In this document: one piece after another, positions 11,492 to 64,000 of the stretch
Numbering within the stretch: position 1 is the stretch's first letter
Layout of the letters: every line of letters begins with the position of its first letter
Source: an uncultured Thermodesulfobacteriota bacterium
Lineage (GTDB): Bacteria > Desulfobacterota > WTBG01 > CAIYCZ01
Assembly (NCBI GenBank): GCA_964594075.1
Contig: CAZQKW010000011.1
Location: forward strand, 1,480 to 65,479
Length of the DNA stretch: 64,000 nucleotides
Direction of reading: 5' to 3'
Translations under genes and position numbers: made by a program
The notes under the pieces: generated by a model
Database searches by the model: none
Seen by the model: only the letters and a program-made list of their open reading frames with translations
What the model was told of the DNA's origin: nothing

Positions 11492-11567
<76 letters not shown>

Positions 11568-41670: not shown

Positions 41671-41765
41671 CGGGGTTTTGTTAACATTAATAAAGTTTCT
41701 CGCTGCAAAGCGTTCTATATTTTCAAACGCACAACCGCTAAACTCTTCTCACCACCTGCGGAGGA

Positions 41766-43088: not shown

Positions 43089-43133
43089 GATTCATTTTAA
43101 ACATCAAAGCCCTGTTGAAGAAAGGAGTCCCTC

Positions 43134-46106: not shown

Positions 46107-47204
46107 ATGACTATGCCTGAATCAGTTGCAAAAAAGCTGTCGTTTCTTGACCGTTTTTTAACGCTGTGGATTTTTCTCGCCATGTTTATAGGGGTCGGCT
46201 GGGGTTACATATTCCCCGGCATTGTGAAATTCTGGGACCGGTTTCAGGTTGACACCACCAACATACCTATTGCCATTGGCCTTATTCTTATGATGTATCC
46301 GCCCCTGGCAAAAGTTAAATACGAGGAATTGGGGGAAGTGTTCAGAAACTATAAGGTTTTGGGATTGTCATTAGTCCAGAACTGGGTCGTTGGACCGATT
46401 TTAATGTTCATTCTGGCGATTTTGTTTTTGAGCGGCTATCCCGCCTACATGCAGGGTTTGATTATGATTGGACTTGCTCGTTGCATTGCCATGGTTATTG
46501 TCTGGAACGACCTTGCCAAAGGCGATACCGAGTATTGCGCCGGTCTGGTGGCATTTAACTCAGTATTTCAAGTGCTCTTCTTTTCAGTGTATGCCTGGAT
46601 ATTTATAACCATACTGCCTCCTCTTCTTGGTCTTAAAGGCACAGAAGTTAACGTCACTATTGGCCAGATTGCGCAAAGCGTTTTTATCTATCTCGGCATT
46701 CCGTTCATCGCAGGCATCATTACCCGTTTCACCCTAATAAATATCAAAGACAAGAAATGGTATCATGAAAAGTTTATTCCCAAAATCAGCCCGATTACCT
46801 TGCTCGCACTGCTTTTTACCATTTTAGTGATGTTTTCGCTAAAGGGTGAATACATCGTTAAAATCCCCCTTGATGTTGTCCGGATTGCCATACCGCTGCT
46901 TGTTTATTTTGTGGTCATGTTTTTGGTAACGTTCTACATGAGCAAAAAAGCCGGTGCAAGCTATGCCCAGACGGCAACGCTCTCCTTCACCGCGGCAAGC
47001 AACAATTTTGAGCTGGCGATAGCAGTTGCGGTGGCAGTCTTTGGTATTAGTTCCGGCCAGGCATTTGCAGCCGTCATTGGCCCGCTGGTAGAGGTGCCGG
47101 TGCTCATAGGTTTGGTGAACGTAGCGTTAAAGTTTAAAGAAAAATATTTTTCGTCGGCACCAGAAACACCAATTGATGTGTGTCAGATAAGCTGCACAGA
47201 TTGA
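46107..47204 (+). CDS. acr3: arsenite efflux permease, Acr3 family
   Basis: AGGAGG RBS. 365 aa, 10 TM, with [21 protein letters not shown]...MMYPPLAKV hallmark. Confidence 0.8.
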
Positions 47205-47278: not shown

Positions 47279-47743
47279 TTACAATGTGTGATCAGCGCTC
47301 ATAGGTATGATGTAATTTTTGCAGGAGGCGATAAAATTTTCGACCGCCGTTTTAATCTGATCCCGCACAATTCTTGTTTTGTTTTTTATTTCTTCTGCAG
47401 TGCCGTTAAAGCAAGCGGGGTCTTCAAAGCTCCAGTGTAATCGCTGGGTTATGCCTGGAAATAGAGGACATCGTTCTGAAGCGCTCTGTTCGCATACCGT
47501 TATGACAAAATTATATTTTCTTCCCTGTTTAAAAAAATCAAATACGCTGTTTGTTTGGTTGTGGGAGATATCAAGCCCGACCTCTTTCATAACTTCAATT
47601 GCAACAGGGTTAAGCTGTCCGGGGGACAGTCCGGCACTTTCCGCTTCAAATCTGTCTCCTGCCAAATGATTAAGAAAAGCTTCTGCCATCTGACTGCGAG
47701 CGGAATTATGAACACAGACAAAGAGAACACGTATTTTTTTCAT
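47279..47743 (-). CDS. arsC: arsenate reductase, LMW-PTP family (thioredoxin-coupled)
   Basis: [20 protein letters not shown]-loop (CxxNSxRS), plus downstream Cys residues for the disulfide cascade. Confidence 0.8.
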
Positions 47744-47827
47744 TATATTTGGCCTCCTGTGGTTTTTTTCATCACACATAGTTAATGATTGTTAAGATTT
47801 GATAAAGATTTGAAAAAAAATTGATAG

Positions 47828-48250
47828 ATGTCAAATAATAAAAAGAAAAAAGTCCTTTTTCTCTGCACCGGCAACTCCGCCCGCAGCCAGATGGCGGAAG
47901 GTCTGATGCGCCATTTTCGCGGCGATGAATTTGAGGTCTTCTCCGCAGGGGTGGAGCCCAAAGGGGTGCACCCGCAGGCAATCGAAGCCATGCAGGAGAT
48001 CGGCGTGGATATCTCCGGGCAGCAATCAAAACATGTGAACGATCTGCCAATAAAAGAATTTGACTGCATTATAACCCTCTGTGACCACGCGGCACAGAAT
48101 TGCCCGGTGTTCCCCGGCACGGGAAAACGCATGCATCAGGAGTTTCCCGATCCGGCGCAAGTTCATGGCAGCGAGCACGAGGTGTTAGAAGCCTTCCGAA
48201 AAGTGCGTGACGAACTGAAGCAGTTTATTCTTGCATTCGAAACCACTTAG
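47828..48250 (+). CDS. arsC: second arsenate reductase, LMW-PTP family (divergent from the first)
   Basis: [20 protein letters not shown]-loop, ...CDHAAQNCP. Confidence 0.8.
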   Translation: MSNNKKKKVLFLCTGNSARSQMAEGLMRHFRGDEFEVFSAGVEPKGVHPQAIEAMQEIGVDISGQQSKHVNDLPIKEFDCIITLCDHAAQNCPVFPGTGKRMHQEFPDPAQVHGSEHEVLEAFRKVRDELKQFILAFETT

Positions 48251-48374: not shown

Positions 48375-49673
48375 ATGAACTGGAAAGAGGAATGGAAGCT
48401 GCTGGCATTAATTGCCGGAGCTTTTCTTGTTTGTTTTTATTTGCCAGTAGGCTCGCAGCGCTTTGACAACGCCGTGATGGAAGCCTTGCAACTGGTAAAA
48501 TGGTATGCACGAGAGCATGTGCTGTTATGCCTTGTGCCGGCATTTTTTATTGCCGGCGCCATCTCAGTTTTCGTCAGCCAGGCATCAGTCATGAAATATC
48601 TGGGAGCACGGGCTAACAAAGTTTTGGCATACGGTGTTGCGTCGGTATCCGGAAGCGTGCTTGCGGTGTGTTCCTGCACGGTGCTGCCGCTGTTTGCCGG
48701 CATTTATAAAATGGGTGCCGGGCTTGGTCCTGCCTCGGCGTTTCTTTATTCCGGCCCGGCAATTAATGTGCTGGCGATTATTCTTACGGCACGAATCCTT
48801 GGCATGGAAATCGGCATTGCCCGGGCAGTTGGTGCCGTGGCTTCCAGCATAATAATCGGGCTGTTAATGCATCTCATATTTCGAAAAGAAGAGATTGCAA
48901 AAGTTAATGCGCAAATGGCAATACCTGAGCCCGAGGTTAAGCGTCCGCTCTGGCAAACCACAGTCTATTTTGCCCTGATGGTAGCAATTCTGGTCCTTGC
49001 CAACTGGGGAAAGCCTGACACGCAGGAAGGTTTTTTTTACGCAGTCCATTCCATAAAATGGTATCTGACCGGGATTTCAGCGATAGCTTTTGCCGTAATA
49101 CTGGTTCTCTGGTTTAACCTTGCATGGGTCAAAATAGTATATGCTGCTGTGCCGACCATAGTGCTTGCATTTCTGTTTCCCGGTCAGCCGCTCATAGCCT
49201 TTGGCGCTGCGGTAATAGGTCTTTCCGCAATCACCAGCAAAGATAGCGGCGAGTGCGGAGAATGGTTCAGTGCAAGCTGGGGTTTTACAAAGCAAATTAC
49301 CCCACTGCTTTTGGGAGGGGTTCTGGTATCAGGTCTCCTGCTTGGCCGCCCGGGAAACGAAGGCATTATTCCCAATGCATGGGTCACAAATCTTGTCGGT
49401 GGCAATTCTTTGTGGGCAAACCTGTTTGCCTCAGTTGTCGGCGCCTTTATGTACTTTGCCACGCTCACTGAGGTGCCTATCCTGCAGGGACTTATCGGCA
49501 GCGGCATGGGCAAAGGCCCTGCTCTTTCGTTACTGCTTGCCGGCCCTGCATTGTCGTTGCCGAACATGCTGGTGCTGAACAGTATCATGGGAACTAAAAA
49601 GACGGTGGTGTATTGCTCACTCGTAGTCGTCATGGCGACGGTTACCGGCATGCTTTTCGGCGCTCTGCCATAA
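48375..49673 (+). CDS. arsP: permease of the DUF318/ArsP family (putative organoarsenical efflux)
   Basis: 8-10 TM. AVCSCTVLP motif resembles the ArsP TPFcSCS signature. Context is the ars operon. Confidence 0.6.
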   Translation: MNWKEEWKLLALIAGAFLVCFYLPVGSQRFDNAVMEALQLVKWYAREHVLLCLVPAFFIAGAISVFVSQASVMKYLGARANKVLAYGVASVSGSVLAVCSCTVLPLFAGIYKMGAGLGPASAFLYSGPAINVLAIILTARILGMEIGIARAVGAVASSIIIGLLMHLIFRKEEIAKVNAQMAIPEPEVKRPLWQTTVYFALMVAILVLANWGKPDTQEGFFYAVHSIKWYLTGISAIAFAVILVLWFNLAWVKIVYAAVPTIVLAFLFPGQPLIAFGAAVIGLSAITSKDSGECGEWFSASWGFTKQITPLLLGGVLVSGLLLGRPGNEGIIPNAWVTNLVGGNSLWANLFASVVGAFMYFATLTEVPILQGLIGSGMGKGPALSLLLAGPALSLPNMLVLNSIMGTKKTVVYCSLVVVMATVTGMLFGALP

Positions 49674-49695
49674 CCAATCAGAGGGAGGCTTATTG

Positions 49696-49917
49696 ATGTT
49701 AGATATAACCAAAAAGACACTCACACTTGAACCCCGGGAAGTTATGGAACTTGAGCGGATTATTATTGATGATGACCGGGAAGGTGCTTTTCAGTTTTTA
49801 AAAAAGAACATTTACCAGAGATTTATTGCTTCGCAGCAAGATCATCTCAAATCACACTTTGATGGGTGCAGCGATCCGGCTACTTCATTTTCCCAGGGGC
49901 AAACAAGTAAAAAATAA
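49696..49917 (+). CDS. small hypothetical protein (74 aa)
   Basis: GAGGGAGG RBS 7 nt upstream of ATG. No recognisable motifs. Confidence 0.4.
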   Translation: MLDITKKTLTLEPREVMELERIIIDDDREGAFQFLKKNIYQRFIASQQDHLKSHFDGCSDPATSFSQGQTSKK

Positions 49918-49950: not shown

Positions 49951-51879
49951 ATGATGCTCATGAAAAAAATTATTCTTTTTTTAATCTTTGGTGCATTTTT
50001 CCCCTTAATCTTAATTGCTAAAACAGAGAGTAAAACTAATTCATTTACCGGTGTATGCCCTCCCTTTTACATTAAAGACGAACGGGGAGAGATTATTAAT
50101 CCCGTTACAAATCAAAACACGGATGTTCCTTATAGTCCAAAGCAAACCTGCGGAACAGCAGGCTGTCACAATTATGAAAAAATCACTATGGGTTATCACT
50201 TTCAGCAGGGAAAAGACGAACAGCCAAGTCAGAAGTTAAAAGAACTCTATCAGTGGGTTTTAAGCCCCGGCCAGTACGGCGGCCGGTGGTGAACGCCGGC
50301 ACCCAACTTTCGCCAGTTGGCGAAAAAAGAAAACAGCTCAGCCGCTGTAATTGACTTAACGTCTTTTGAGTTTGCCACAGCCGCTGCCTGCGGAAGCTGT
50401 CACCCTGGCGGCGGTCCCCTTGAGTACGACCGCAAAGGCAACCGTTATGACGTGTTTGCTGCGGACCCTAAAAATAATATCACCTCAGGAGGTGACAACG
50501 GGTTTGATGGCGACTATTTTAAAGCCCGCTGGGCGGAATCCGGGGTGGTTGAAGCTGATTGTCTTCTGTGCCACAGCCCCAGTTATGATATGAGTGCAAG
50601 AAACAAGCAGCTTGCAGTGTTTAATTATAAGTGGTCAGCATCGGCAGGGGCTGGTATCGCGCGCGTAACGGGGGAGGTAAAAAAAGGTGAGAAGCCGGTT
50701 ATCCAGTACCAAACTGATAAATTTAACAGCGACGGACATTTATCTGTGCCCATAATCAAGGAGGTTCCCACGGAGAACTGTTTGTTCTGCCATGCAGAGA
50801 CAGACTGGAAGAAGAAAGGCACCAGTTACAGCCATCGCTTTGATGTGCATCTGCGAGCTGGCATAAAATGTATTGAGTGCCATCCGGCAGGAACCAGTGC
50901 TGCCGATAGCCGAATCAACAGCAAAGAAGAGCACCATTTTGCAAAGGGTGATGATCCGGGGACTTTGGTGAGAGATGATCTTGATAATACAGTGATCACC
51001 TGTCAACAATGCCACGAAAAAGGTTTGCACCGAGCTCCTCTTATGAAGCACGCTTCATTCACTGATGGCAGCTTTGAAGTGCATCAGGAGAAAATCTCCT
51101 GCCAGGCCTGCCATGTTCCTCAGAAAGCGGTCAAGCCAGCACTCATTCAGGATAGCGTTGTATTGAACCCCAAACCCCGCGTGCCGGGTTTAAAACGCAT
51201 CTGGTCATTCTATGGTCCTGATGTCAAGCCGTGGAATTACTACGGAGAAGTTGACCTGACAAAAGGCAAAGGTAAACCGTTGTATTTTTATACCCCGCAA
51301 CTGCGCTGGTATAAGGAAAAAATATATCCGGTCAGCAGTCTTTATTCCATCTGGTATGGATTGAAGACCAATGGGAAGAACGGTCTTGATCAGGTTTTTA
51401 TGCAGGATATCGGGGACATGTGGTCTAACGCACAAGACTATCCCCTTCTTGCCAGCATAACCGATGATAATGGTGACGGCTTCAAGGAGGTTAACCGCTC
51501 AGAAGAAATTGACGCAGCAATTGCTTCCATGACAGCATATTTGAAGAAAAAGGGCAAACTCAATAAAGACCAGAAGGTTGTCTTGGTCAAGGGAAATGAA
51601 GCGCATCTGTCTGGCAAAGAGAAAGTTATGTTAGAGAAGCAGCCCTATGAATACTCAGCATACGGTGCCACCTTCAAATTGAGCCATGATATTGCACCGG
51701 CCAGCGCTGCCCTTGGCGCCGGGGGCTGTGCAGATTGCCACCGCAAAGAGGCGCCATTTTTTACTCAACTTTATATGGCAGAGCCATTCGGCGAAGATGG
51801 AAAGATCCAATGGTTGCCGGCTTATAAGGTGCTCAATTACAGCGAAGAGGCTCTAAAGGAGCAGACTCAGGAAAGGTGA
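49951..51879 (+). CDS. multiheme (7x CxxCH plus one CX4CH) c-type cytochrome with N-terminal signal peptide; the reading frame is interrupted by an in-frame TGA at 50290-50292 (readthrough/selenocysteine candidate, or pseudogene)
   Basis: ORFs 49951-50292 and 50317-51879 are in the same frame. The signal peptide (MKKIILFLIFGAFFPLILIA) is only on the first; the second has all the CxxCH sites, no signal peptide and only a TTG start. A hairpin at 50308-50325 lies 17 nt after the TGA. Confidence 0.6.
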
Positions 51880-51904: not shown

Positions 51905-53242
51905 ATGCAGAAAGGCTTTAACAGCGTTATTATTATTATAAGCGTGCTTATTCCTCATATCCTATACGGAGCCTCGGATGTTGCACATACAAATATCTGG
52001 AATCCGTTAAAGGGTATTGCGCTCGGTTCAGGTAAATTTGATATATCTGGCAGCTTGCGGCTTCGTTATGAATATGTGGAAAATTATAACAGAAAAGAAT
52101 ACGGGCTTAAAAAGAATGACGGCTTTTTGCTGCAGCGGTTCAGACTGGAATTTGATGTGCACTGGGAAGACCGCCTGCGACTTTTTCTGCAGTTCCAGGA
52201 TGCACGGGTATTTGACTATAAGCTCAAAGATCGTGATTTTATTAGCAATCCCAATAAAGACGAACATGAGCTGCACCAGGCATTTGTAGAAGCACAGCCG
52301 GCATCTGTCGTTCCTGTCTATCTGAAGCTGGGCAGGCAGGTGATTGAGTATGGTGACAGTCGCATCTTCGGCCCCGGCGATTGGGGAAACACGGGGCGCG
52401 TGTTATGGGATGCAGCCAAGATCAGTTATCATGACGAGAACTGTGCCATAGATACATTTTACGGCAGACGAATAATACATGATCCGCACCAATTTAATGA
52501 TCATTATGACCGACAGGCGTATGGTTTGTATGGCACTATTTTTATGCCGCAGAAGAACGTTTTTGACGTCTTTTATGTCCTGGAACTTGACAATGAAAAA
52601 GACACCCAAGGAGAGTCAGGAAGTTACGGCGATCTGCGAGTGCATACCGCGGGGTTTAGAATGGCCGGGACATACCAGCGGTTTGATTATGACACGACCT
52701 ATGCCCGTCAGTTTGGCGGCTGGGGACCAGACACAATGAGGGCTTGGGCATTACATACCGGCGGTGGCTATACATTTTCTACCCTCTGGTCTCCACGCAT
52801 CGGGATAGATTATGCGTATGGTTCCGGTGATGATGACCCAACAGACGGAAAACACAAAACATTCAACCCGGCATTTGGCTCTATGGACAAATACTACGGG
52901 TGGATGAATCTTTTTTCATGGCGAAACATTATTAACTGGCAATTCAGTGCATCGGTGAGACCTCACCGGAAACTGAATCTTGTTCTTGACTATCACATGT
53001 TCCGTTTAGCCCAGAACAAGGATGCCTGGTACAGCACCGGCCCTGCATACCGGCGGGATGAAACGGGAAAGAGCGGCAGCGATGTGGGCGAGGAAATTGA
53101 TTTTACCCTTCACTTTTCTGTAACAGAGCATCTAAAACTCAGGGCAGGTTATGCACACTTCTTCCCGGGAGATTTTGTTGAGAACACCGGCGCGCATGGA
53201 AGTGCAGATTGGGTCCATTGCCAGTGGCTTTGGTTTTTTTAA
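51905..53242 (+). CDS. outer-membrane beta-barrel of the alginate-export (AlgE-like) family
   Basis: Signal peptide; alternating amphipathic strands; LRLRYEYVEN...; many aromatic-Gly strand ends; C-terminal ...WLWFF. Confidence 0.55.
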   Translation: MQKGFNSVIIIISVLIPHILYGASDVAHTNIWNPLKGIALGSGKFDISGSLRLRYEYVENYNRKEYGLKKNDGFLLQRFRLEFDVHWEDRLRLFLQFQDARVFDYKLKDRDFISNPNKDEHELHQAFVEAQPASVVPVYLKLGRQVIEYGDSRIFGPGDWGNTGRVLWDAAKISYHDENCAIDTFYGRRIIHDPHQFNDHYDRQAYGLYGTIFMPQKNVFDVFYVLELDNEKDTQGESGSYGDLRVHTAGFRMAGTYQRFDYDTTYARQFGGWGPDTMRAWALHTGGGYTFSTLWSPRIGIDYAYGSGDDDPTDGKHKTFNPAFGSMDKYYGWMNLFSWRNIINWQFSASVRPHRKLNLVLDYHMFRLAQNKDAWYSTGPAYRRDETGKSGSDVGEEIDFTLHFSVTEHLKLRAGYAHFFPGDFVENTGAHGSADWVHCQWLWFF

Positions 53243-53273: not shown

Positions 53274-53687
53274 ATGAAAATTACCATCATCGGCGTGGTC
53301 CCTCCCTGTCCCCGGTGCCAGCGGATTTACGATCTAACTATAGAAGCGGTTAACGAATTGGGGGCAAAAGCAGAGATAAAGAAAATTGCCTATGATTCTG
53401 ATGAAGCAAAACAGTTCGGCAGGGTGGGCACTGTTCATGATATTGCCGAATGGGCGCAGATTGACATCGACTGGAGAAAAATCTGGGACATTGCCACAGA
53501 AGGCTGGTCGCAGGAACTTGATGAACTGATGATGCCGTGCAAACAGCGGGCCGGCATTGAAGGATGGCTGATGACTCCGGTATTGTTGCTTGACGACACG
53601 GTTGCCGCCATGGGCTATGTTCCAGACAAAGAATACATCAAAACAGCAATAAAAAAACACTTGCAGAAAGGAGCGCACAACGCATGA
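53274..53687 (+). CDS. thioredoxin-fold CxxC protein (Trx_3-like core split by a ~50-aa insertion)
   Basis: KITIIGVVPPCPRCQ N-terminus and TPVLLLDDTVAAMGYVPDKEYIK C-terminus match the Trx_3 fold; the middle segment is extra. Its stop overlaps the next start (ATGA). Confidence 0.5.
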   Translation: MKITIIGVVPPCPRCQRIYDLTIEAVNELGAKAEIKKIAYDSDEAKQFGRVGTVHDIAEWAQIDIDWRKIWDIATEGWSQELDELMMPCKQRAGIEGWLMTPVLLLDDTVAAMGYVPDKEYIKTAIKKHLQKGAHNA

Positions 53688-53914
53688 AAATCGAAATTCT
53701 GGGAACCGGTTGCCCGAAATGTAAGAAGCTTTTTGAGAATGCTCAGGAAGCGGCAAAAGCGCTCGGTATAGCAGCCGAGATAGTAAAAGTGGAAGATATC
53801 CAGCAGATCATGAATGCCGGCGTCATGATTACGCCGGCACTGGCAGTTGACGGCGAGGTCAAGGCTGCGGGAAAAGTATTAAGTGTGGATGAAATCAAGA
53901 AAATTATCGAGTAA
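53684..53914 (+). CDS. small thioredoxin-family protein (Trx_3 / redox-active disulfide protein 2 type)
   Basis: MKIEILGTGCPKCKKL...MITPALAVDGEVKAAGKVLSVDEIKKIIE; 76 aa. Confidence 0.7.
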   Translation: MKIEILGTGCPKCKKLFENAQEAAKALGIAAEIVKVEDIQQIMNAGVMITPALAVDGEVKAAGKVLSVDEIKKIIE

Positions 53915-53986
53915 GAGGGAAGCCGTTCAAAAGACACAAGACAAAGTAAAAGAGCAGCTTGCACAACCCATTACGAGAGAGGTGGC

Positions 53987-54439
53987 ATGATGAAAAAAAT
54001 ACATCTGGTAATAATAATAGCTGCATGGTGCTGCGGTCTCGTGGCAAACAGCCTGTTCAATAGCGCCCGGGCAGAAACGCGGAAAGAGCAGAAACCGGAT
54101 AAAGGAACCGTCGTCGCCTATTACTTTCATGGAAATTTCCGCTGTTATAGCTGTTTCACGATTGAACAGTATGCAAAAGAAGCAATTGAAAAATATTTTC
54201 CTGAACAGCTTAAAAACGGCAGGCTTTCATTTCAGCCCATAAATATTGAAGAGAAGGGAAATGAACATTTTATACAGGATTATCAGCTTTATACCCGCTC
54301 TCTGATCCTTGCTGTATTTAAGAATGGCAAACAGGTTAAGTGGATAAACCTTGAGAAAGTGTGGAATTATATTAGAGACCGGGATGCCTTTTATAACTAT
54401 GTAAAAACCGAAGTTGAAAAATATTTAAAGCACCTATAA
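53987..54439 (+). CDS. periplasmic (signal-peptide) thioredoxin-fold CxxC protein
   Basis: Signal peptide MMKKIHLVIIIAAWCCGLVANSLF. VVAYYFHGNFRCYSCF CxxC motif. Confidence 0.5.
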   Translation: MMKKIHLVIIIAAWCCGLVANSLFNSARAETRKEQKPDKGTVVAYYFHGNFRCYSCFTIEQYAKEAIEKYFPEQLKNGRLSFQPINIEEKGNEHFIQDYQLYTRSLILAVFKNGKQVKWINLEKVWNYIRDRDAFYNYVKTEVEKYLKHL

Positions 54440-54443
54440 GCAA

Positions 54444-55139
54444 ATGGAACTGTCTTTTCTTCCGCTTGTTTCCGCTTTATGGCTGGGTATTCTGACATCG
54501 GTCAATCCCTGCCCGCTTGCTTCAAATATAGCGGCAGTGTCTTTTATCATGAAGCGCATAGACAGATCTTCGGTTGTCTTGTCCTCGGGTTTTTCCTATA
54601 CGCTGGGCAGAATGACCTGTTATACGGTTCTGGGCGTGCTGCTCACCTCATCGCTGCTGGCCATTCCCCAGACTGCCCAGTTTCTGCAGAAACATATGAA
54701 CCAGGTCATGGGACCGGTCTTACTGTTCACCGGGTTATTTTTGCTCGGTCTGATTAAAGTCCCCGTCACCAGCTTTTCATTATCGGACCGTGTCAACAGC
54801 CGTATGGCCGACACAGGTGTCATGAGCTCATTTCCGCTGGGTGTTCTATTTGCCCTCTCCTTTTGTCCGGCATCAGCCGCCATATTCTTCGGCAGTCTGC
54901 TGCCCCTGTCGCTCAAACATAGTTCACCCGTTTTATTTCCCGCGGTCTATGGTATTGGCACGGGCCTGCCGGTGATTGCGTTTGCGTTTTTTATTTCTTT
55001 CGGGGCAAAAAATATCGGCCTCCTGTTCAAGAAGGTGACCGCCGTTGAATACTGGATCAGAAAGGCAACCGGCATAATATTTATCCTGATCGGGATATAT
55101 TATATCATGGTCCACATTTTCTATCTACAGATACTATAA
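54444..55139 (+). CDS. ccdA: CcdA/DsbD-transmembrane-domain family thiol:disulfide transporter
   Basis: TM1 SVNPCPLA and TM4 ALSFCPASAAIF conserved Cys pair. 6 TM. Confidence 0.75.
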   Translation: MELSFLPLVSALWLGILTSVNPCPLASNIAAVSFIMKRIDRSSVVLSSGFSYTLGRMTCYTVLGVLLTSSLLAIPQTAQFLQKHMNQVMGPVLLFTGLFLLGLIKVPVTSFSLSDRVNSRMADTGVMSSFPLGVLFALSFCPASAAIFFGSLLPLSLKHSSPVLFPAVYGIGTGLPVIAFAFFISFGAKNIGLLFKKVTAVEYWIRKATGIIFILIGIYYIMVHIFYLQIL

Positions 55140-55140
55140 A

Positions 55141-56427
55141 TTGTTTTGGTATGGTTCGTTTGGTCAACAAACAATGAAATTCAAACCTGAATTGCACGCA
55201 ACTGTAGATGAGCACAATCGTTTAATCCTGCCACCAGAAATTGTTGCTCAATTAGGATTACGTCCCGGCAATAGCATTCCTATCAGTCCGGGACGGCACT
55301 GCATATCTGTGCGCCAGCCAATAACGCATCTGAAAAAGATCTATATTGAACCGACCAATCAATGCAATTTGTCCTGCCGTATGTGCATTCGCTCGGTATG
55401 GAAAGAGCCTCTGGGGCAGATGACGCTTGAAACGTTCAATCATATTATTCAAAGTTTGCGCGAGCTTTCGGGACCGTTAACCGTTGTATTCGGCGGCTTC
55501 GGCGAGCCGTTGTTTCACCCGGATATCATCACCATGATAGCAGCCCTGAAAGAACTTGGCGCATCGGTTGAATTAATTACCAATGGCACGTTGCTGACCG
55601 AAGAGTTTTCGCGCGCGTTCCTTGAAACCGGCATTGATGTGCTGTGGCTCTCCCTGGATGGCGCATCACCGGAAAGCTATGCCGATGTCCGGCTTGGAGC
55701 GATGCTGCCGGAAGTGCTGGCAAATATGTCCCGCCTGCGTTACAGTTCATGGGCATACCAGTATCCCCAGCCGCATTTGGGTATCGTTTTCGTCGCTATG
55801 AAGCGCAATATTGCGGACCTGCCGGCAGTCATGACCATCGGGTCGCAACTGAAGGCTGATCGTTTTATTATAACTAATGTGCTTCCATATACTTCGGAAC
55901 TGCTGCCCGAAGTGCTTTATACCCGAACCATAGGCGATATTGCTGTGGCGCCGTCTCCTTGGGCGCCGTATATCAATTTTTCAAAAATGGACATGAATGA
56001 TGACACCCGGGAGACTCTCCATCGTGTGATCCGCTCCTGGCGAATAACCAGTTATCATAAAGACGACATGGGCGAATCGGCAAATTATTGCCCGTTTATT
56101 GAAGGCGGCGCAACTGCGATAAGCTGGGACGGCTCGGTCAGTCCCTGCCTGCCGCTCATGCATTCCCACGAAAGTTATTTGCACGACCGGCGGCGCTTTT
56201 CCCGGCGCCACGTCATCGGCAATATTGCAAACCAGTCGTTGCGTGATTTGTGGAACAACCCTCAGTATGTCGCCCTGCGACAACGGGTGCAGGACTTTGA
56301 CTTCTCGCCGTGCACGTTTTGCGGCGGCTGCGATCTTTCGGAAGCCAATGAAGAAGATTGCTTCGGCAACGTCTTCCCGACCTGTGGCGGCTGTCTCTGG
56401 GCACAGGGTGTGATTCAATGTCCGTAA
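55141..56427 (+). CDS. radical SAM enzyme with N-terminal AbrB/MazE-like swapped-hairpin domain and C-terminal Cys-rich SPASM/twitch-like domain (paralog 1); start may be ATG 55174
   Basis: HNRLILPPEIVAQLGLRPG (AbrB-like). CNLSCRMC CxxxCxxC. GGFGEPL. C-terminal CPFIEGG...SPCLP...CTFCGGC...CGGCLWAQG. Confidence 0.7.
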   Translation: MFWYGSFGQQTMKFKPELHATVDEHNRLILPPEIVAQLGLRPGNSIPISPGRHCISVRQPITHLKKIYIEPTNQCNLSCRMCIRSVWKEPLGQMTLETFNHIIQSLRELSGPLTVVFGGFGEPLFHPDIITMIAALKELGASVELITNGTLLTEEFSRAFLETGIDVLWLSLDGASPESYADVRLGAMLPEVLANMSRLRYSSWAYQYPQPHLGIVFVAMKRNIADLPAVMTIGSQLKADRFIITNVLPYTSELLPEVLYTRTIGDIAVAPSPWAPYINFSKMDMNDDTRETLHRVIRSWRITSYHKDDMGESANYCPFIEGGATAISWDGSVSPCLPLMHSHESYLHDRRRFSRRHVIGNIANQSLRDLWNNPQYVALRQRVQDFDFSPCTFCGGCDLSEANEEDCFGNVFPTCGGCLWAQGVIQCP

Positions 56428-56501
56428 TTGCTGAAAGATTAAAAGAAAAAGGCGCACCGCTGTGAAAAAGGGTCTCACGAGTTGTTTTTCTTGCGCCCTC
56501 C

Positions 56502-57782
56502 TTGCCGGTGCGCCCCTGTGCCTATTTGCCTCTGCTTATGAAACTCAAACCCGATTCATACGCGCATATTGATAGCGACGGCCGGCTTGTTATTCCGCAG
56601 GAAATTGCATTCTGCTATGGATACAAACCCGGAGCCGTTGTGCCTCTGAATGAGGCTGAACAAAACATAACGTTGCGCTTGCCGCCCACCCACCTGAAAA
56701 AAGTCTATATAGAGCCTACCAATCGCTGCAATCTTGCGTGCCGCATGTGCATCCGCAGAACCTGGGATGAACCGCTGGGCAGAATGGCGCAAAATATTTT
56801 TAAGCGTATCCTTGAAGGCCTGCGTGATTTCTCTCCGACCCCTTCCATTGTGTTCGGCGGGTTTGGTGAACCGCTCTCTCATCCTGATATTGTGGCAATG
56901 GTTCAGGAAGCGAAACACCTCAAGGCGCAGGTGGAGTTGATTACCAATGCAACCCTGCTTTCTGAGGATCTTGCCCGCAGTCTCGTAGCCGCGCGTCTTG
57001 ATGTGCTGTGGGTTTCAATTGAGGGGGCCAAAACGGCAAGTTATGCAGACGTGCGGTTAGGGGGTGAATTAACCACGGTGCTGGATAATATACGCCGGTT
57101 CCGCGACAGCAGACAGGCATACCGGACGGACATTGGCGTCGTGTTTGTTGCCATGAAACGCAACGTCCACGAACTGCCGGCTGTCATGCAGCTCGCCAAA
57201 GACCTCGGCGCAAACCGTTTTCTGGTAACCAATGTTCTGCCCTATACAGAAGAGCTGTGCGCCGAAACGCTCTATACCTGCGAACCGATTCACGAGACCA
57301 ATCCATTTTTAAATCTGAATAATTCGTTTGAACTTTGTAAAATGGATTTCAACGAGGCAACCAGCATGCCGCTGCAAACCATAATCCATCATGCGAGTAT
57401 CCTGAACGACACTGCGACCAATGCCAGCATGATGCAGAATTACTGCCCTTTCATAGAGGGCGGTTCAGTTGCGATCTGCTGGGATGGACGTGTCAGCCCG
57501 TGTCTGCCGCTCATGCATACCCACACGAGTTTCTTAAGAGACCGAAAACGGCTTACCAAATGTTTTCATGTCGGCTCGATTGCGGATCAGGGTCTGAAGG
57601 AAATCTGGAATTCCGCTGTTAACATCGCTTTTCGGCGGCGCATCCAGGCCTTTATGTTTGCTTCCTGCACGTCGTGCAAAGGCTGTGAGCTGGCGGAGAA
57701 GAATGAAACAGACTGTTTGGGCAATGGCTTTCCATCCTGCGGCGGCTGTTTATGGGCGCAGGGATACATCCGGTGTCCGTAA
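56502..57782 (+). CDS. radical SAM enzyme with AbrB-like N-domain and SPASM-like C-domain (paralog 2; about 60% identical to paralog 1); start may be ATG 56538
   Basis: DGRLVIPQEIAFCYGYKPG. CNLACRMC. C-terminal CPFIEGG...SPCLP...CTSCKGC...CGGCLWAQG. Confidence 0.7.
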   Translation: MPVRPCAYLPLLMKLKPDSYAHIDSDGRLVIPQEIAFCYGYKPGAVVPLNEAEQNITLRLPPTHLKKVYIEPTNRCNLACRMCIRRTWDEPLGRMAQNIFKRILEGLRDFSPTPSIVFGGFGEPLSHPDIVAMVQEAKHLKAQVELITNATLLSEDLARSLVAARLDVLWVSIEGAKTASYADVRLGGELTTVLDNIRRFRDSRQAYRTDIGVVFVAMKRNVHELPAVMQLAKDLGANRFLVTNVLPYTEELCAETLYTCEPIHETNPFLNLNNSFELCKMDFNEATSMPLQTIIHHASILNDTATNASMMQNYCPFIEGGSVAICWDGRVSPCLPLMHTHTSFLRDRKRLTKCFHVGSIADQGLKEIWNSAVNIAFRRRIQAFMFASCTSCKGCELAEKNETDCLGNGFPSCGGCLWAQGYIRCP

Positions 57783-57987
57783 AACACGGGAGAAAGAATT
57801 CACGGAATCACGGGTCCGCTTGGTGCTTGGGGGCATGAACCATTACGTGCAGCCCCTGGTAATTAAATTTTGGCCTTGTTGAGAATTTTTCATTACCGCA
57901 GGTCGTTGAAAATTGTTATAAAAAGGTCTGTGAAAATATATCTCAAATCTCTTGGGATAGGATTTCGGATAGAGAAAGGGGGTGGAT

Positions 57988-58230
57988 ATGCTCACCATTA
58001 GAATACTGGGCACTGGCTGTGCAAGCTGCGATAATCTGCACCAAGAAGTTATAAACACTCTGGCCGAGCTGAACATTGCCGCTGATGTCCGCCACGAACG
58101 CAATGTCGCGGAATTCTATAAATACGGCGTGGCAGCAACGCCCGCGCTGGTTATTAATGGAAAGGTAAAGGCGGCTGGCAGAGTCCCGTCAAAAAGAGAG
58201 ATTGTCGAGTGGGTAAAAGCCGCCGGATGA
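57988..58230 (+). CDS. small thioredoxin-family protein (Trx_3 type), third copy
   Basis: GGGGGTGG RBS. MLTIRILGTGCASCDNL...ATPALVINGKVKAAGRVPSKREIVEWV. Confidence 0.7.
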   Translation: MLTIRILGTGCASCDNLHQEVINTLAELNIAADVRHERNVAEFYKYGVAATPALVINGKVKAAGRVPSKREIVEWVKAAG

Positions 58231-58262: not shown

Positions 58263-58685
58263 TTAAACAAACGGCAGCGGCTTGCCGGTGCGGAATGCAA
58301 GCGCCTGGCAGGTGGCAATAAGCCGACCATCCTGATCATGCACTCGAATATCATAGGTTGCGGTCTGCTTGGTGCTGCTGATTTCCCGCGCCTCGGCGCG
58401 CAGTCTTCCCCTGCCTTTTGGACTTGACACATAGGTGACACTGACATTAAGCGCCACCGTAACCACCCCGCAGGTCTGGCATACTGTTTCAAATGCCTCG
58501 TCAATTAAAGAAAAGATGGCGCCGCCGTGTGCCCGGCTGAAAATGTTGTCCATGGTCTCCGGCTCGTAGGTCATCTGCACTGCTGAAAAGCCTTCCTCAA
58601 GCGCCACCAGTTCCAGCTTCATCAACTGCGCAAACGGCTCCCTTTCTACGATCTGCTGAATAGCTTGTTTGACTTGTGGGTCCAT
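58263..58685 (-). CDS. hotdog-fold acyl-CoA thioesterase (PaaI/YdiI-like)
   Basis: HGGAIFSLIDEAFETV motif; 140 aa. Confidence 0.65.
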   Translation of the reverse strand: MDPQVKQAIQQIVEREPFAQLMKLELVALEEGFSAVQMTYEPETMDNIFSRAHGGAIFSLIDEAFETVCQTCGVVTVALNVSVTYVSSPKGRGRLRAEAREISSTKQTATYDIRVHDQDGRLIATCQALAFRTGKPLPFV

Positions 58686-58756: not shown

Positions 58757-60163
58757 TTATTGAATAATACTGCCCAATGTATCCTGATGTTTCTTAAGCG
58801 CAGCCAAAATCTGGGGGGTTTCATTGAGTCCTTCCACAATCAGTTTACAGGACTGGGTTGCGCCGGTGAGAGCATCCACATCTTTCTTAAGGTGCAGCGG
58901 CAGTTTCTGGCCTGCTTTCAGCATAACGCGCTGCAAATAATCGTCCGCCGAGATCGGCACGCCGTATAAATCTATGGATTCTATCAACACGATATTTTTT
59001 ATTTTGCCGCTCTGGTCAAAAGAATACACAAAATGCACATTGGTGCACACGTCGCACAGGATATCTTTGAAAACCTCCCGCACAAAAATTTTTCCATTGT
59101 TTTCTGCAACGCCGATATACACCGTCTGCTCATTTTCGAGGATTATTTTCTGAAATTTCTTAACGCCCGGGGCAACTCTGCGTATATAGTCCATAAGCAA
59201 ATCTTCGGGAAGCTCTTCTCTGAAATAACTGCCGGCTTTTGCCAGCACGCCGTTTAGATTCTCCAGTGAAATTTCGTCCTGCATATAGCGTATTAAGCCC
59301 TTTTTATTGATGATAAAAACTTTATTGCTGATAACCGCACGATTGGGGGAAATTTCAACGCCATAGAGCTTTGCCACCTCTCCATTTTCATCAACGTAAA
59401 TGGGATAATTGACATAGTATCTTTCCCTAAATCTTTTTACCTCCTCCGCGGAATCGCCCACGGCAATGCGGATAATGTCCAGGTCTTCCCGCTTATACCG
59501 GCTGTAAACGGTTTTAAGAATTTCTATAGCCTTTTTTACTCCTTCATTGCGGATTGATAAAAACGTGAGGGTAATGGTTTTTTTGCCAATACTGTCATAA
59601 AGATGGAAGGTTTCCCCTTCGGTATTTTTGAGTGAAAAATCCGGCGGCCGGTTCCAGAGTGCGACCCCCACCGGCGTCTCCTTTTCAGCAATTGCTCGCT
59701 CTATGACCGGGGCAAGTTCGGATTCTGCCGGCAATTTGCCGCGGAACCGGATAGTACCGTTTCTGTCTATGATGTCTATAAGCGGCACTGTGCGCACAAA
59801 ATATTTTTCGTATATTTGTTTCTGAGGATCTGGAACAAGGTCGTAGTCCGGTTTAAATTTCTTTTTAAACTCAAGCACTTCTTCACGATCGTTGCCGATA
59901 GCAATCCCGATTACTCGCAGGTTCTTATACTTCTGCACAATGTCGTTGATTCTGGCGACTTCTTCGCGACAGGAGTGGCAATAGGTGTTGAAATGCACGA
60001 GCATCAAAACAGTGCCCGAGAATCGGGATAGAGAAATTATATTGCCGTCAATATCCTGCAGAGAAAATTCAGGGGCTTCCGCCCCGGTCATGTCGGCCGG
60101 TGCGGGGGAGGGATATAGGACTAAAATATATATTATAATTATAATAATGAACACTTTGTTCAT
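58757..60163 (-). CDS. periplasmic fusion protein: two TlpA/redoxin-like thioredoxin domains (first with CHSC active site) plus C-terminal FMN-binding (NosR/NqrC-type) domain
   Basis: Signal peptide. APEFSLQDIDGN...VHFNTYCHSCREE; second redoxin-like repeat PPDFSLKNTEGE... without CxxC; C-terminal DALTGATQSCKLI (SGAT-type FMN attachment motif). Confidence 0.55.
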   Translation of the reverse strand: MNKVFIIIIIIYILVLYPSPAPADMTGAEAPEFSLQDIDGNIISLSRFSGTVLMLVHFNTYCHSCREEVARINDIVQKYKNLRVIGIAIGNDREEVLEFKKKFKPDYDLVPDPQKQIYEKYFVRTVPLIDIIDRNGTIRFRGKLPAESELAPVIERAIAEKETPVGVALWNRPPDFSLKNTEGETFHLYDSIGKKTITLTFLSIRNEGVKKAIEILKTVYSRYKREDLDIIRIAVGDSAEEVKRFRERYYVNYPIYVDENGEVAKLYGVEISPNRAVISNKVFIINKKGLIRYMQDEISLENLNGVLAKAGSYFREELPEDLLMDYIRRVAPGVKKFQKIILENEQTVYIGVAENNGKIFVREVFKDILCDVCTNVHFVYSFDQSGKIKNIVLIESIDLYGVPISADDYLQRVMLKAGQKLPLHLKKDVDALTGATQSCKLIVEGLNETPQILAALKKHQDTLGSIIQ

Positions 60164-60310: not shown

Positions 60311-60999
60311 CTACCGCAACGCTGTCTCTCTAACGGCGGCGTGATCCGCCATGCCGCCTAAAGCGGCGCGCAGAATCTGGCGCCCGATCTGGCTGCCAAC
60401 GGTTCGCGCAGCCTGTTTGGCCAGCGTTTCCACCATGCCTTGCCGGCGTTTGATGCCCCATAGTAAATCGCCAATCATGGCCCGGCTTTCAGACGGCGCT
60501 GCCGTCTCGTCTCGGTTTGCTTCCGACCCAGCCGCTTGCTTTTCCTCGGTCCGTTGTTTCAAAATTTCATAGGCCGATTTCAAGCGTCGCGGTTTGGGTG
60601 TCGTTATTCAGGCTTAAGTATCCGACTGAGCAAACTCGGTCCCATTTCGCTGCTCGAAGTGCGCACGGGGTGACCAGCGGTGCCAAACACGTCCCAGAAT
60701 AATATCGGGTTCGCTTCATGAGCGTATCCCTCAATGTCGATGCTGACAACGCGCTGCTGAATTTTCTCGTTAGGTGTTCCGGCTATCGCCAGACCCGAGA
60801 CGTCGCCCTTTACATCAGCCATGAAGACCGGCACGCCCAACCGCGATAAGCCCTCAGCCAATACAAGCAAAGAAATGGTCTTGCCAGTCCCGGTGACGCA
60901 AGCAATCAGCCCATGGCAGTTGCCATACTGGGCGAGTAAATAAACAGGCCGATCGCCTTTGCCAATAAGAATCTGGTTCATGGTTTTTTTTTGCGACAA
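60311..60999 (-). pseudogene. remnant of a DUF853 (YjgR-like) P-loop NTPase gene: N-terminal ~125 aa and C-terminal ~90 aa retained, central ~300 aa deleted
   Basis: ORF 60604-60999 (ILIGKGDRPVYLLAQYGNCHGLIACVTGTGKT...FWDVFGTAGHPVRTSSSEMGPSLLSRIL) matches the DUF853 N-terminus. ORF 60311-60583 (...TLAKQAARTVGSQIGRQILRAALGG) matches the DUF853 C-terminus. Only about 20 nt separate them. Confidence 0.55.
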
Positions 61000-61222
61000 C
61001 CATGACTCGCGCTGGCCAAGATCGCGGTGCAGATCTACATATTGCTGTTTATTATATTTCTATTCTTGTTCACTTAATATAAGCAACCTCATAGCAAGTC
61101 AAGGTTTTTGATTAACTAATTTTCTTGAAAAAACCTCGGTGGTTTTTTATATTATTGTCAATAAAATACTGCAGGTATGCCAGAAAGCCCCCATTTTTAC
61201 TGCCAAGGGTGAATTGTTTCAC

Positions 61223-62062
61223 ATGAAATCAGATGACCTTAAACAGATCGTAAAGGAAAAATACGGCGCGATTGCAAAGCAGGAAATTTCGCGGTTACCA
61301 TCATGTTCCTGTTGCTGTCCGGATGCGTCTGCACGCACAGATTATTCAACTTTTAGCGAAGACTATTCCAAACTGGAGGGCTATAACCCTGATGCAGATT
61401 TTGGTCTTGGCTGCGGCATGCCAACCGAAACAGCGCGAATTAAGCCCGGCGATACCGTCATTGATCTGGGCTCAGGCGCGGGAAATGATGTGTTTGTAGC
61501 CCGACGGCTGGTGGGAGAATCGGGAAAAGTCATTGGCATTGACATGACGCCGGCGATGATAGAAAAAGCTCTGGAAAATAACCGAAAACTGGGTTATGCC
61601 AATGTGGAATTCCGTTTGGGTGAAATTGAAAACCTGCCGGTTGATGACAATACGGCAGACGTGGTAATAAGCAACTGCGTGTTAAATCTGGTGCCCGACA
61701 AGCTGGAGGCCTATCGGGAAATCTATCGAGTACTGAAACCGGGCGGCCATTTCAGCATTTCCGATGTGGTGCTCACCGGCGATCTGCCGCCGACTCTGCA
61801 ATCTGCGGCAGAAATGTATGCCGGCTGTGTTGCCGGCGCGCTTAAAAAAGAAGTTTATATGCGGGTGATAAAAAAAGCCGGTTTTATAAACGTTGCCCTG
61901 GCAAAAGAAAAGCCTATGACCATTCCTAACGAGATGCTTTCCCAGTTTCTTTCGGAGCCCGAGCGGACAGAATTTAAAAAGGATGTCTCTCCCCTTCTCA
62001 GCATCACCGTGTATGGAGAAAAGCCCGAATTGATCGGCGGCGGCCGCTGCTGCTGCGATTGA
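61223..62062 (+). CDS. arsM: arsenite S-adenosylmethionine methyltransferase
   Basis: SAM MTase motif VIDLGSGAGNDVF. Conserved Cys cluster near the N-terminus (SCSCCCPD) and CVLNLVPDK. Cys-rich C-terminus GGGRCCCD. Confidence 0.8.
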   Translation: MKSDDLKQIVKEKYGAIAKQEISRLPSCSCCCPDASARTDYSTFSEDYSKLEGYNPDADFGLGCGMPTETARIKPGDTVIDLGSGAGNDVFVARRLVGESGKVIGIDMTPAMIEKALENNRKLGYANVEFRLGEIENLPVDDNTADVVISNCVLNLVPDKLEAYREIYRVLKPGGHFSISDVVLTGDLPPTLQSAAEMYAGCVAGALKKEVYMRVIKKAGFINVALAKEKPMTIPNEMLSQFLSEPERTEFKKDVSPLLSITVYGEKPELIGGGRCCCD

Positions 62063-62401: not shown

Positions 62402-64000
62402 TTAAGCATCATGACGAAGTTCTTCAAGCCCCAATGCTGCCAATTTTCTTGTTTGTATTCGGCTGTCAGCTTCCCATCCTCTAACCCGGTAATAATCTTT
62501 AATCATTTTGTCAACCGGCGGCAGATGATTTACTGCGGGTCCATAATTTCTTTTTAAGGTAGTAAAGCGTTCATGCAGATAGTCTGAAGAAGAATCACAT
62601 CCGCGTCTGAGATTAATGAGATGCTTGAGATTGAATATCCTCTCGCCCGACAGCATCAGAGAGGCAAAGTCCTGCTCCATGCCGGTAACAAGATTAAACC
62701 ATTCAACGACTTCTTTTGCGGTTATGCCCGAAAACCCTGTGGCAGCATAATTTTGCGCATAACCGGCATGTGAGAAAGCGCACAGCACCAGCGAATTGAG
62801 AATACAGCCATAATCCTGCCCGCGGGCAACCATTTCAGGAGCCATATCACCATTAAATCTGATAGTGGCCATTTCCATCAAATCAAAGCCCTCAACGCGC
62901 GGGTCTGCTGCACCGGTGTGGATTGCGCCGCGCGGGTCAGTGGCATATGCAAGGGCAAGGAAGTTGTGGGCGCGGGGATCGTGGGCCGGCACTTCAAGAC
63001 CTTTTACTTCAATGGCATATTTTTCTGCTCCCTTCCCTATCATCTGCGCAGCGCGCCGTGTGCCCTCGGCAAGTATCGCGCCGAAACCTTCTCGCACGCA
63101 GATTTTTTCCAACATTGAAAGCATCGCTGTGCCGTTGCCAAAGGTGAGTTGAATGCCATCGGTATCTTTTTCGTTAATCAATCCCTGCGCAAAGCATTCC
63201 ATGGCAAAGGAGATAACACCGCCCGCAGATATGCTGTCTATACCGTTGCGGTTGCATAAATCATATGCTTTCTGCACCAGCCCCAGGTCTGTTATGCCAC
63301 ACTGCGAACCAAGCGGAGCCATTGATTCCCATACATTTTGCCGTAGCCCAGCTTTAACATATGATTCAACGCATCCTGTCGGACAGCTCGCGCATTGATA
63401 CGGGTGCGCTTCCCGGACATGGTTTTCGATTTCCTTCAAAACAGAGTTTTTAAACCCTGCAAGGTATCCATCACGCCAGTTGTTGACGCCATGCCGTCCA
63501 TCATCAACAAACATACTAAAAACTGCTGCGGCCTTTTTAAAACAGTGTTCAGGCTCCTTTATCATCACCGGCACAGCTTTGCGTATGGCAGGCAGCAGTT
63601 TTTCCTTCTCTCTCACTGCAACGCTCTGGCTTCCGAGAACGGCTATTGCCTTCAGGTTCTTCGAACCCATCACCGCCCCGACGCCACAGCGAGCTGCAGT
63701 TCGGGCCGCAGAGCCGTCATGGACAATGGCTGCAAACTTTACCAGCCGTTCACCGGCACTGCCGATTGCCGCTACTTTGACCCTTTCGCCGCACAGGTTG
63801 CAAAGAAGCTGCTTGGTTTCAAATGTATCGCGCCCTGCAATGTCTTCCGCATCTTCTATTGCCACAGACTGATTTATTATTTTAAGATAAACGGGATGCT
63901 CTGCCCTGCCTGTTATAACGATGCCGTCAAAGCCAGCCCGTTTTAGCTCTGTGCCCCAGGTTCCTCCGGCATACGACTCCCCCCATACGCCGGTGAGTGG
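62402..64000 (-). CDS. aor: tungsten-containing aldehyde:ferredoxin oxidoreductase (AOR family), 5' end beyond the window
   Basis: Frame open to nt 64000 (...PLTGVWGESYAGGTWGTELKRAGFDGIVITGRAEHPVYLKI...). AOR domain 2/3 similarity throughout, including CNLCG and DSISAGG regions. Confidence 0.8.
   Translation of the reverse strand, partial: PLTGVWGESYAGGTWGTELKRAGFDGIVITGRAEHPVYLKIINQSVAIEDAEDIAGRDTFETKQLLCNLCGERVKVAAIGSAGERLVKFAAIVHDGSAARTAARCGVGAVMGSKNLKAIAVLGSQSVAVREKEKLLPAIRKAVPVMIKEPEHCFKKAAAVFSMFVDDGRHGVNNWRDGYLAGFKNSVLKEIENHVREAHPYQCASCPTGCVESYVKAGLRQNVWESMAPLGSQCGITDLGLVQKAYDLCNRNGIDSISAGGVISFAMECFAQGLINEKDTDGIQLTFGNGTAMLSMLEKICVREGFGAILAEGTRRAAQMIGKGAEKYAIEVKGLEVPAHDPRAHNFLALAYATDPRGAIHTGAADPRVEGFDLMEMATIRFNGDMAPEMVARGQDYGCILNSLVLCAFSHAGYAQNYAATGFSGITAKEVVEWFNLVTGMEQDFASLMLSGERIFNLKHLINLRRGCDSSSDYLHERFTTLKRNYGPAVNHLPPVDKMIKDYYRVRGWEADSRIQTRKLAALGLEELRHDA

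Follow-up and report, generated by a model that had tools for sequence, protein, structure and literature searches.

Arsenic gene catalogues have been drawn mostly from aerobes and facultative organisms, and for strict anaerobes little is known of how arsenic is handled apart from efflux, reduction and methylation. A described system close to the locus presented here is ArsEFG from Shewanella putrefaciens, reportedly characterised by Chen, Zhang and Rosen in 2019 as a system for the nitroreduction of roxarsone and nitarsone and the efflux of the resulting amino-arsenicals; as named, the published system has no radical S-adenosylmethionine (SAM) component. Radical SAM enzymes are part of other ars clusters, namely ArsS and ArsL of arsenosugar and arsinothricin biosynthesis. 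A tandem pair of radical SAM/SPASM paralogs is found in anaerobes with the SynChlorMet proteins ScmE and ScmF, and the family TIGR04317 contains the predicted Cmo-type "tungsten cofactor oxidoreductase radical SAM maturases" such as Thermovirga lienii Tlie_1912 and Thermococcus kodakarensis TK1064, with genes for an aldehyde ferredoxin oxidoreductase (AOR) and a MoaD-like protein adjacent. Here, we analysed a 64,000 nucleotide stretch of DNA (the window; contig CAZQKW010000011.1) from an uncultured Thermodesulfobacteriota bacterium, in which a string of seven genes at positions 53274-58230 joins arsEFG to two radical SAM genes within an arsenic island.

The extended arsEFG cassette and its radical SAM pair

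In the string, an arsEFG cassette is extended by two paralogous radical SAM enzymes encoded in tandem, rSAM1 and rSAM2. All seven open reading frames (ORFs) were found on the plus strand in the order and at the coordinates given in the first-pass annotation (Table 1). That annotation had called the string an uncharacterised operon, which is true of the radical SAM pair but not of genes 2 to 4 and 7, since these pass the NCBIfam cut-offs of the ArsE, ArsF and ArsG models. As in S. putrefaciens, arsE, arsF and arsG are contiguous; the differences are that arsG is directly followed by the radical SAM genes and a second arsE, and that a gene for a Trx_3-like protein with an insertion (TrxIns) precedes the cassette. 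TrxIns orthologs are found in the equivalent position in related loci (L001, L008, L036, L039, L040, L047 and L115). What had been described as a transmembrane thiol-electron relay is the arsEFG cassette, and the relay itself is a reasonable reading of the domain families, since Trx_3, DsbD_2/CcdA and secreted CxxC proteins would together resemble one. The spacing is looser than the gaps of 1 to 30 nucleotides claimed before: the 4-nucleotide overlap between genes 1 and 2 is present, and the gaps that follow measure 72, 4, 1 or 34, 74 or 110 (depending on the start codon) and about 199 nucleotides. A consensus scan for promoters and terminators revealed no convincing terminators in these gaps.

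Aligned from end to end, rSAM1 and rSAM2 are 50% identical. They share a three-part architecture, which had been proposed earlier and is confirmed by domain, profile and model data: an AbrB-like N-terminal domain, a CxxxCxxC core and a SPASM-type C-terminal region. PF04055 is matched with 63 and 56 bits and PF13186 (SPASM) with 53.5 and 43.7 bits by rSAM1 and rSAM2, respectively. In a 17-sequence alignment of the family, C64, C68 and C71 of the core motif and nine further cysteines are invariant, as are the C-terminal auxiliary-cluster motifs quoted in the first-pass annotation; in a 119-sequence alignment C64, C68, C325 and C416 are conserved at 90% or more, not invariant. The radical SAM core is intact in both enzymes, and the nine extra cysteines are enough for two auxiliary [4Fe-4S] clusters. 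The AF2 model (mean pLDDT 82.7, pTM 0.86) has its nearest solved folds, as found by Foldseek, in SuiB, BlsE, DesII, BtrN, MoaA, CteB, anSME, SkfB and PqqE, with TM scores of about 0.5 and identities of 14-19%. The PDB contains no close solved structure, the top sequence match being BtrN at 48 bits.

The N-terminal domain had been taken for a swapped hairpin of the AbrB/MazE type. With Pfam it stays below threshold, since PF04014 (SpoVT_AbrB) gives 16.0 bits for rSAM1 (gathering score 24.7) and no match for rSAM2, but profile and fold comparisons support the assignment. Some homologs carry a precomputed PF04014 match, and hhalign of the N-domain profile against AbrB, SpoVT and Abh (target sequences entered by hand) gave a probability of 93%. 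A profile search of the PDB returned 2glw at E=4e-6, with weaker AbrB/SpoVT matches behind it. In a separate AF2 model of the domain, the top 17 Foldseek matches in the PDB were all of the AbrB, SpoVT, Abh, MazE or Sso7c4 type (TM 0.55-0.71). Residues D12, R16, G28, P31 and G32 are invariant in the 17-member alignment. As modelled, the N-terminal half-barrel has a fold whose members normally dimerise into a barrel.

To place the pair among named families, we used NCBIfam release 20.0 (June 2026). No model in this release scores above its cut-off for either protein, which bears out the first-pass annotation, where an AbrB-like domain on SPASM enzymes could not be placed in any characterised family. 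The top family is TIGR04317 (W_rSAM_matur) with 296.3 bits for rSAM1 and 292.0 bits for rSAM2 (cut-off 380), followed by TIGR04311 with 218 and 210 bits (cut-off 400). Nine relatives drawn from arsenic as well as AOR contexts, and a further one that has neither in its vicinity, likewise score 277-323 bits on TIGR04317, and therefore the whole group lies outside this model. The control was Tlie_1912, the one distant homolog yielded by the plasmid collection and a true TIGR04317 member encoded in the order AOR-MoaD-radical SAM, which reaches 502.1 bits. This protein of 373 amino acids is 30% identical to rSAM1 in an alignment that begins at query residue 48, and has no AbrB-like domain; core and SPASM region are alignable and the C-terminal cysteine motifs are related (CGGCLWAQGVIQCP in rSAM1, CGDCLWARNLILCP in Tlie_1912). 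Judged by these sequence comparisons, the window enzymes are members of a large unnamed sister family of TIGR04317. It holds more than 5,400 cluster representatives at E<=1e-10; among the 120 best of these, query coverage is 92-100% (98% or more in nearly all), and public annotations of its members are generic.

The SynChlorMet option raised in the first-pass annotation had to be rejected: ScmE (TIGR04250) gives 46.9 and 55.7 bits and ScmF (TIGR04251) 45.9 and 45.6 bits against cut-offs of 400, and the neighbours in the window are ars and thiol genes, not other Scm genes. The kinship to ArsS or ArsL considered there is not supported either. Both models are absent from the best 25 of 57 NCBIfam matches, the 25th of which scores 37-40 bits, so that both lie below about 40 bits. 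ArsS and ArsL work with ArsM, whereas only 4 of 110 related loci have arsM near the radical SAM gene, and to our knowledge neither enzyme has the AbrB-plus-SPASM architecture. Membership in PqqE, NirJ/AhbD and anSME was ruled out on the scores of the hidden Markov models (HMMs).

The SPASM maturases anSME, SuiB, CteB, SkfB and PqqE belong to the same fold class as the window enzymes and likewise have an auxiliary domain with several cysteines (Foldseek probability 1.0), but identities are only 15-19%, and the window enzymes have no adjacent precursor gene and no RRE/PqqD-type recognition domain. The AbrB-like half-barrel stands where solved peptide maturases carry that domain, which makes this a new SPASM domain architecture. 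Full-text searching of the literature found no paper describing ars operons with a radical SAM gene of the SPASM or AbrB-fused kind. While arsEFG was known, the SPASM enzyme with a new N-terminal domain and its strong association with arsenic islands are new.

Recurrence of the family in arsenic islands

For the comparison of contexts, 27 loci were fetched from GTDB genomes and 80 from metagenomes, supplemented by individual look-ups (L001 and following). Searches with the window proteins (tblastn) revealed recurrent linkage of the radical SAM gene to Acr3, ArsC, ArsR, ArsE, ArsF, ArsG, ArsP and ArsM. Collapsing the relatives at 80% identity gave 76 clusters, 59 of them informative. Within 6 kb of the radical SAM gene, 32 of the 59 have specific ars genes (4 of these 32 also an AOR), 11 have only ArsR/Trx_3, 8 have an AOR without ars genes and 8 have none of these; overall, an AOR is near in 12 clusters.

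An unbiased clustering of all neighbours within 5 kb yielded ArsR, Trx_3, Acr3, DsbD_2/ArsG, OsmC, DGC, AOR, ArsP_1 and ArsF among the families, and further an iron-sulfur (FeS) protein (PF04060), ArsC, GcvH-like, secreted Trx, AhpD-like, ThiS/MoaD-like, TauE and C_GCAxxG proteins. The recurrent modules are TrxIns-ArsE-(DGC)-ArsF-ArsG-rSAM-Trx_3, GcvH-DGC-DGC-OsmC-rSAM-Trx_3, secreted Trx-DsbD_2-(FeS)-(ArsC)-rSAM-Acr3 and AOR-(MoaD-like)-rSAM. Directly downstream of the radical SAM gene, the commonest named family is Trx_3 (11 of 93 close neighbours), and most of the 93 belong to no named family.

In anaerobic Deltaproteobacteria, Chloroflexota and others, the family recurs in ArsR/Acr3/ArsC/ArsEFG islands, co-directional and tightly spaced, and its linkage to ars and to thiol or sulfur genes is conserved and operon-like. 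The string itself is syntenic in relatives with radical SAM identities of 55-97% and is therefore not a fortuitous juxtaposition. A conserved enzyme gene without a curated name is present in ars operons of many uncultured Deltaproteobacteria and Chloroflexota, and it is therefore a concrete, testable candidate for a missing arsenic step.

Orthologs of rSAM2 are few (67-97% identity) and always the second member of a tandem pair in like synteny (L035, L115, L116); other relatives, for instance L001, L036 and L039, have a single copy. The gaps flanking the radical SAM genes hold only overlapping or unconserved small ORFs, in agreement with the earlier observation that no small precursor-peptide ORF flanks the pair, and outside close relatives the intergenic DNA shows no conservation.

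Upstream of the string, the window encodes a 74 amino acid protein of a recurring unannotated family. Its members have 48-83 amino acids with a conserved N-terminal half (L.L...E..ELERII.D.D.E.A..FLK) and a variable C-terminal half. The HMM of this family gave 18 matches, namely 17 in 13 related loci and the window's own copy, and these show no invariant cysteine. Examples are L040 3580-3786, L083 6985-7203, L090 1437-1655 and L069 465-638. In five of the 13 loci the gene lies 42-91 nucleotides from the radical SAM gene. The protein might serve as a partner, substrate or regulator.

A minority of the family adjoins AOR and ThiS/MoaD-like genes as TIGR04317 members do, whereas most members are ars-linked. 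In the tree, rSAM1 falls into an ArsF/ArsG-linked clade that is sister to an AOR-linked clade, and ars-linked and AOR-linked clades interleave. Mean identities are 55% and 54% within the ars-linked and AOR-linked sets and 52% between them, and a comparison of the 70% consensus showed no alignment column in which the two sets differ. Interleaved clades and the absence of a separating column argue for a single biochemical activity in both contexts, and we infer that one radical activity may be common to all members. The family connects arsenic islands with the radical SAM partner of the tungsten-dependent AORs, and solving either the ars-linked or the AOR-linked enzyme would probably explain the other.

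The AORs that adjoin family members form two coherent subfamilies (66-84% and 90-93% identical internally), to either of which the AOR of the window is only 31-34% identical. Because of this mismatch it is probably not the partner of the radical SAM pair, and we rejected it as a candidate. In contrast to the TIGR04317 arrangement, it lies 4.6 kb away on the opposite strand, and the string contains no MoaD-like gene.

Some further arrangements were seen among the relatives. Loci of the Chloroflexota type (L010, L011, L012, L015, L016, L017, L020, L021, L023, L033, L041, L052, L054, L056, L078) have the order GcvH-like (with the lipoyl-lysine position kept)-DGC-DGC-OsmC-rSAM-Trx_3-(AhpD-like), often beside ArsR-ArsD-ArsA; this module looks like a lipoyl or thiol-peroxidase-type redox set within arsenic islands. 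The AORs next to the radical SAM gene in Chloroflexota-type loci (L018, L051, L063, L082, L094, L098, L103) are of one subfamily, 66-84% identical, and the radical SAM proteins beside them fall into several clades. In L082, the AOR-radical SAM pair is divergent from ArsR-ArsD-ArsA. Sulfur-carrier genes of the ThiS/MoaD family adjoin the radical SAM gene in ars-linked and AOR-linked loci alike, as a 94 amino acid type (L044, L050, L059, L065), as a 96 amino acid type (L051, L082, L108, L114) and fused to a protoglobin domain (L051, L063).

Possible functions

We consider the description of the string, the protein architecture, the family and its context to be very probably correct. Our functional reading is a tentative one: the enzymes may be arsenic-stress-linked maturases or repair enzymes for a sulfur-based protein or cofactor site. 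Such a role, which we favour, fits the arsenic and the AOR/MoaD contexts alike. SAM would be cleaved to a 5'-deoxyadenosyl radical, which would abstract hydrogen from the substrate, and the auxiliary clusters would transfer electrons, or ligate sulfur or the substrate. As target we envisage a sulfur-based site poisoned by As(III), which could be a cofactor of the dithiol or dithiolene type or a cysteine site of a partner protein. The enzyme would then be a maturation or repair factor co-expressed with arsenic resistance and not an organoarsenical synthase. The AbrB-like half-barrel is most likely a dimerisation element, which in the window could pair rSAM1 with rSAM2 as a heterodimer, and it may also help to bind the substrate.

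Several points weigh against a maturase or repair enzyme. No substrate emerged from the analysis, and none of the neighbour families occurs in the majority of loci. The bridge from arsenic to AOR via As(III)-sensitive sulfur sites is itself something we infer, and the function of TIGR04317, too, is only predicted. Furthermore, ArsS and ArsL show that radical SAM enzymes can act on arsenic directly, and linkage to ars genes is the dominant context. The tree was built by simple neighbour joining, the relatives are the nearest 107 by similarity and many of their contigs are short.

That dominant context would also suit enzymes that act on arsenic directly, making or cleaving a C-As (or As-S) bond anoxically in a new organoarsenical pathway or as an anaerobic equivalent of ArsI, a C-As lyase that depends on O2, with ArsE/F/G, ArsP or Acr3 handling substrate and product. 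The radical SAM gene often lies directly between arsC, arsR and acr3, arsM and ArsP_1 are also present in the window, as is arsEFG, for which aromatic arsenicals are the published substrates, and radical SAM chemistry on arsenic has precedents in ArsS and ArsL (PMC8552651). However, relatives as similar as 51-59% lie beside AOR/MoaD-like genes or beside PerR/rubrerythrin/Hsp33 genes with no ars gene within 10 kb, no residue sets these members apart from the ars-linked ones, arsM is rarely nearby, and the ArsS and ArsL models are outside the best 25 matches. Direct arsenic chemistry is therefore unlikely in our view, and the close members in AOR/MoaD-like contexts argue against the purely organoarsenical role that the first-pass annotation had considered possible. 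A broader proposal also seems doubtful to us, although less so. It sees in the family a new widespread arsenic gene of anaerobes, which either acts on arsenic itself (e.g. by oxygen-independent C-As cleavage or formation) or specifically counters As(III) poisoning by building or rescuing a dithiol/dithiolene cofactor. The AbrB-like domain would then be an element of a new kind by which SPASM enzymes recognise a substrate or partner.

Modification of a peptide or small protein would be in keeping with the fold, since SPASM enzymes with two auxiliary clusters mostly modify peptides or proteins and SuiB, anSME, CteB, SkfB and PqqE are among the nearest solved structures; the small-molecule enzymes BlsE, DesII, BtrN and MoaA are, however, equally close. 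The pair would introduce a crosslink or modified residue into a co-encoded protein (the 74 amino acid family, Trx_3, DGC or ArsF), using the AbrB-like domain as recognition element, and a SynChlorMet-type cassette would be the extreme version. The recurring 74 amino acid family and the frequent Trx_3 gene downstream offer candidates. No candidate is found in the majority of loci, however; the 74 amino acid family was seen in 13 of about 116 and lacks an invariant cysteine. In addition, the flanking gaps contain no conserved small ORF, and ScmE and ScmF score far below their cut-offs. We think a peptide maturase pair quite unlikely. Least credible to us is that the pair are ordinary AOR or tungsten-cofactor maturases which serve the AOR at 62402-64000 and stand beside arsEFG through genomic hitch-hiking. 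In favour of this, TIGR04317 scores best of all families, the window and L035 have an intact AOR 4.6 kb downstream, and several of the 12 clusters with an AOR also have ThiS/MoaD-like genes. Yet the scores stay under the TIGR04317 cut-off, the syntenic loci L001 and L036 retain arsEFG-rSAM-Trx_3 with no AOR within 10 kb, the AOR of the window is far from the partner subfamilies, and ars linkage is far too frequent for hitch-hiking. For the AOR-MoaD-radical SAM trio of T. kodakarensis, maturation of the tungsten cofactor is mentioned only as a possibility (PMC11323500).

Surroundings of the cassette in the window

Upstream of the string lie arsR, acr3 and other ars genes, and arsM and the AOR are found beyond it (Table 1). 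The convergent pair of genes for a thioesterase and an AhpC/Redoxin protein that follows the string is kept in L001, L035, L036, L039 and L116. Between the AhpC-like gene and arsM lies a fragment of a HerA_C helicase, which suggests a past rearrangement or insertion at that point of the island.

Table 1. Genes of the seven-gene string and of its surroundings in the window.
Feature	Position	Strand	Remarks
arsR	45664-46011	+	
acr3	46107-47204	+	
LMW-PTP (low-molecular-weight protein tyrosine phosphatase) gene, ArsC-type	47279-47779	-	extra copy between acr3 and arsC
arsC	47828-48250	+	
ArsP_1 permease	48375-49673	+	
74-aa (amino acid) small protein	49693..49917	+	recurring unannotated family
Multiheme cytochrome	49951-51879	+	in-frame TGA at 50290-50292
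Alginate_exp-type porin	51905-53242	+	
TrxIns (Trx_3-like, CPRC, ~55-aa insertion)	53274..53687	+	137 aa; PF13192 (Thioredoxin_3) covers residues 1-49 only
arsE (MTH895/ArsE thioredoxin-like, CPKC)	53684..53914	+	76 aa; full-length Thioredoxin_3; TIGR00412 107.9 bits (cut-off 62)
arsF (secreted CxxC protein, CYSC)	53987..54439	+	150 aa; hydrophobic N-terminus; NF040494 nitrored_ArsF 120.9 bits (cut-off 60)
arsG (DsbD_2/CcdA-type membrane protein)	54444..55139	+	231 aa; NF040495 equivalog 273.9 bits (cut-off 200); PF13386 DsbD_2
rSAM1	55174..56427	+	AbrB-like N-domain (residues 1-54), radical SAM core (C64, C68, C71), SPASM; alternative TTG start 55141
rSAM2	56538..57782	+	rSAM1 paralog, same architecture, all 12 conserved cysteines; alternative TTG start 56502
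Second arsE-like Trx_3 gene (CASC)	57982..58230	+	82 aa; TIGR00412 88.1 bits (cut-off 62); ~199-nucleotide gap before
Hotdog thioesterase	58263-58685	-	convergent, syntenic
Double AhpC/Redoxin protein with FMN_bind-like tail	58757-60163	-	convergent, syntenic
HerA_C helicase fragment	60604-60999	-	131-aa ORF; match restricted to positions 7-123 of the 502-position profile
arsM (arsenite methyltransferase)	61139..62062	+	NF008823 344 bits (cut-off 263)
AOR	62402..64000	-	intact; runs off the window end

The cytochrome gene upstream of the string had been called an octaheme cytochrome. It does encode a multiheme cytochrome, without a match to a specific NCBIfam family, but this one gene is interrupted by a conserved in-frame TGA. 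The codon lies in the context GGRW*TPAPNF, and a 75% identical ortholog in L036 (5947-7860) has a TGA at the same codon (6280-6282). The protein is conserved on both sides of it, and 18 nucleotides downstream there is a conserved hairpin, TTTCGCC-AGTT-GGCGAAA. The TGA probably encodes selenocysteine, with the hairpin as selenocysteine insertion sequence (SECIS) element, rather than marking two ORFs or a pseudogene.

A search of the whole window against Rfam gave a single match, a tRNA at 11492-11564. Upstream of the island, at 40846-45158 on the plus strand, genes for EtfB, for EtfA with a ferredoxin domain and for a CCG-domain Fe-S oxidoreductase were found, a set that we take to be characteristic of syntrophic fatty-acid oxidisers.

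The motif TTTGAAATTTGACAT was not seen in the window's own 199-nucleotide gap between rSAM2 and the second arsE-like gene. It is common to the corresponding gaps between the radical SAM and Trx_3 genes in L001 (9597-9886), L036 (11249-11426), L039 (4445-4619) and L115 (9246-9393). In L001, L036 and L115, ATGTCAAATAA lies upstream of it, giving an inverted repeat, which could be a promoter or an operator.

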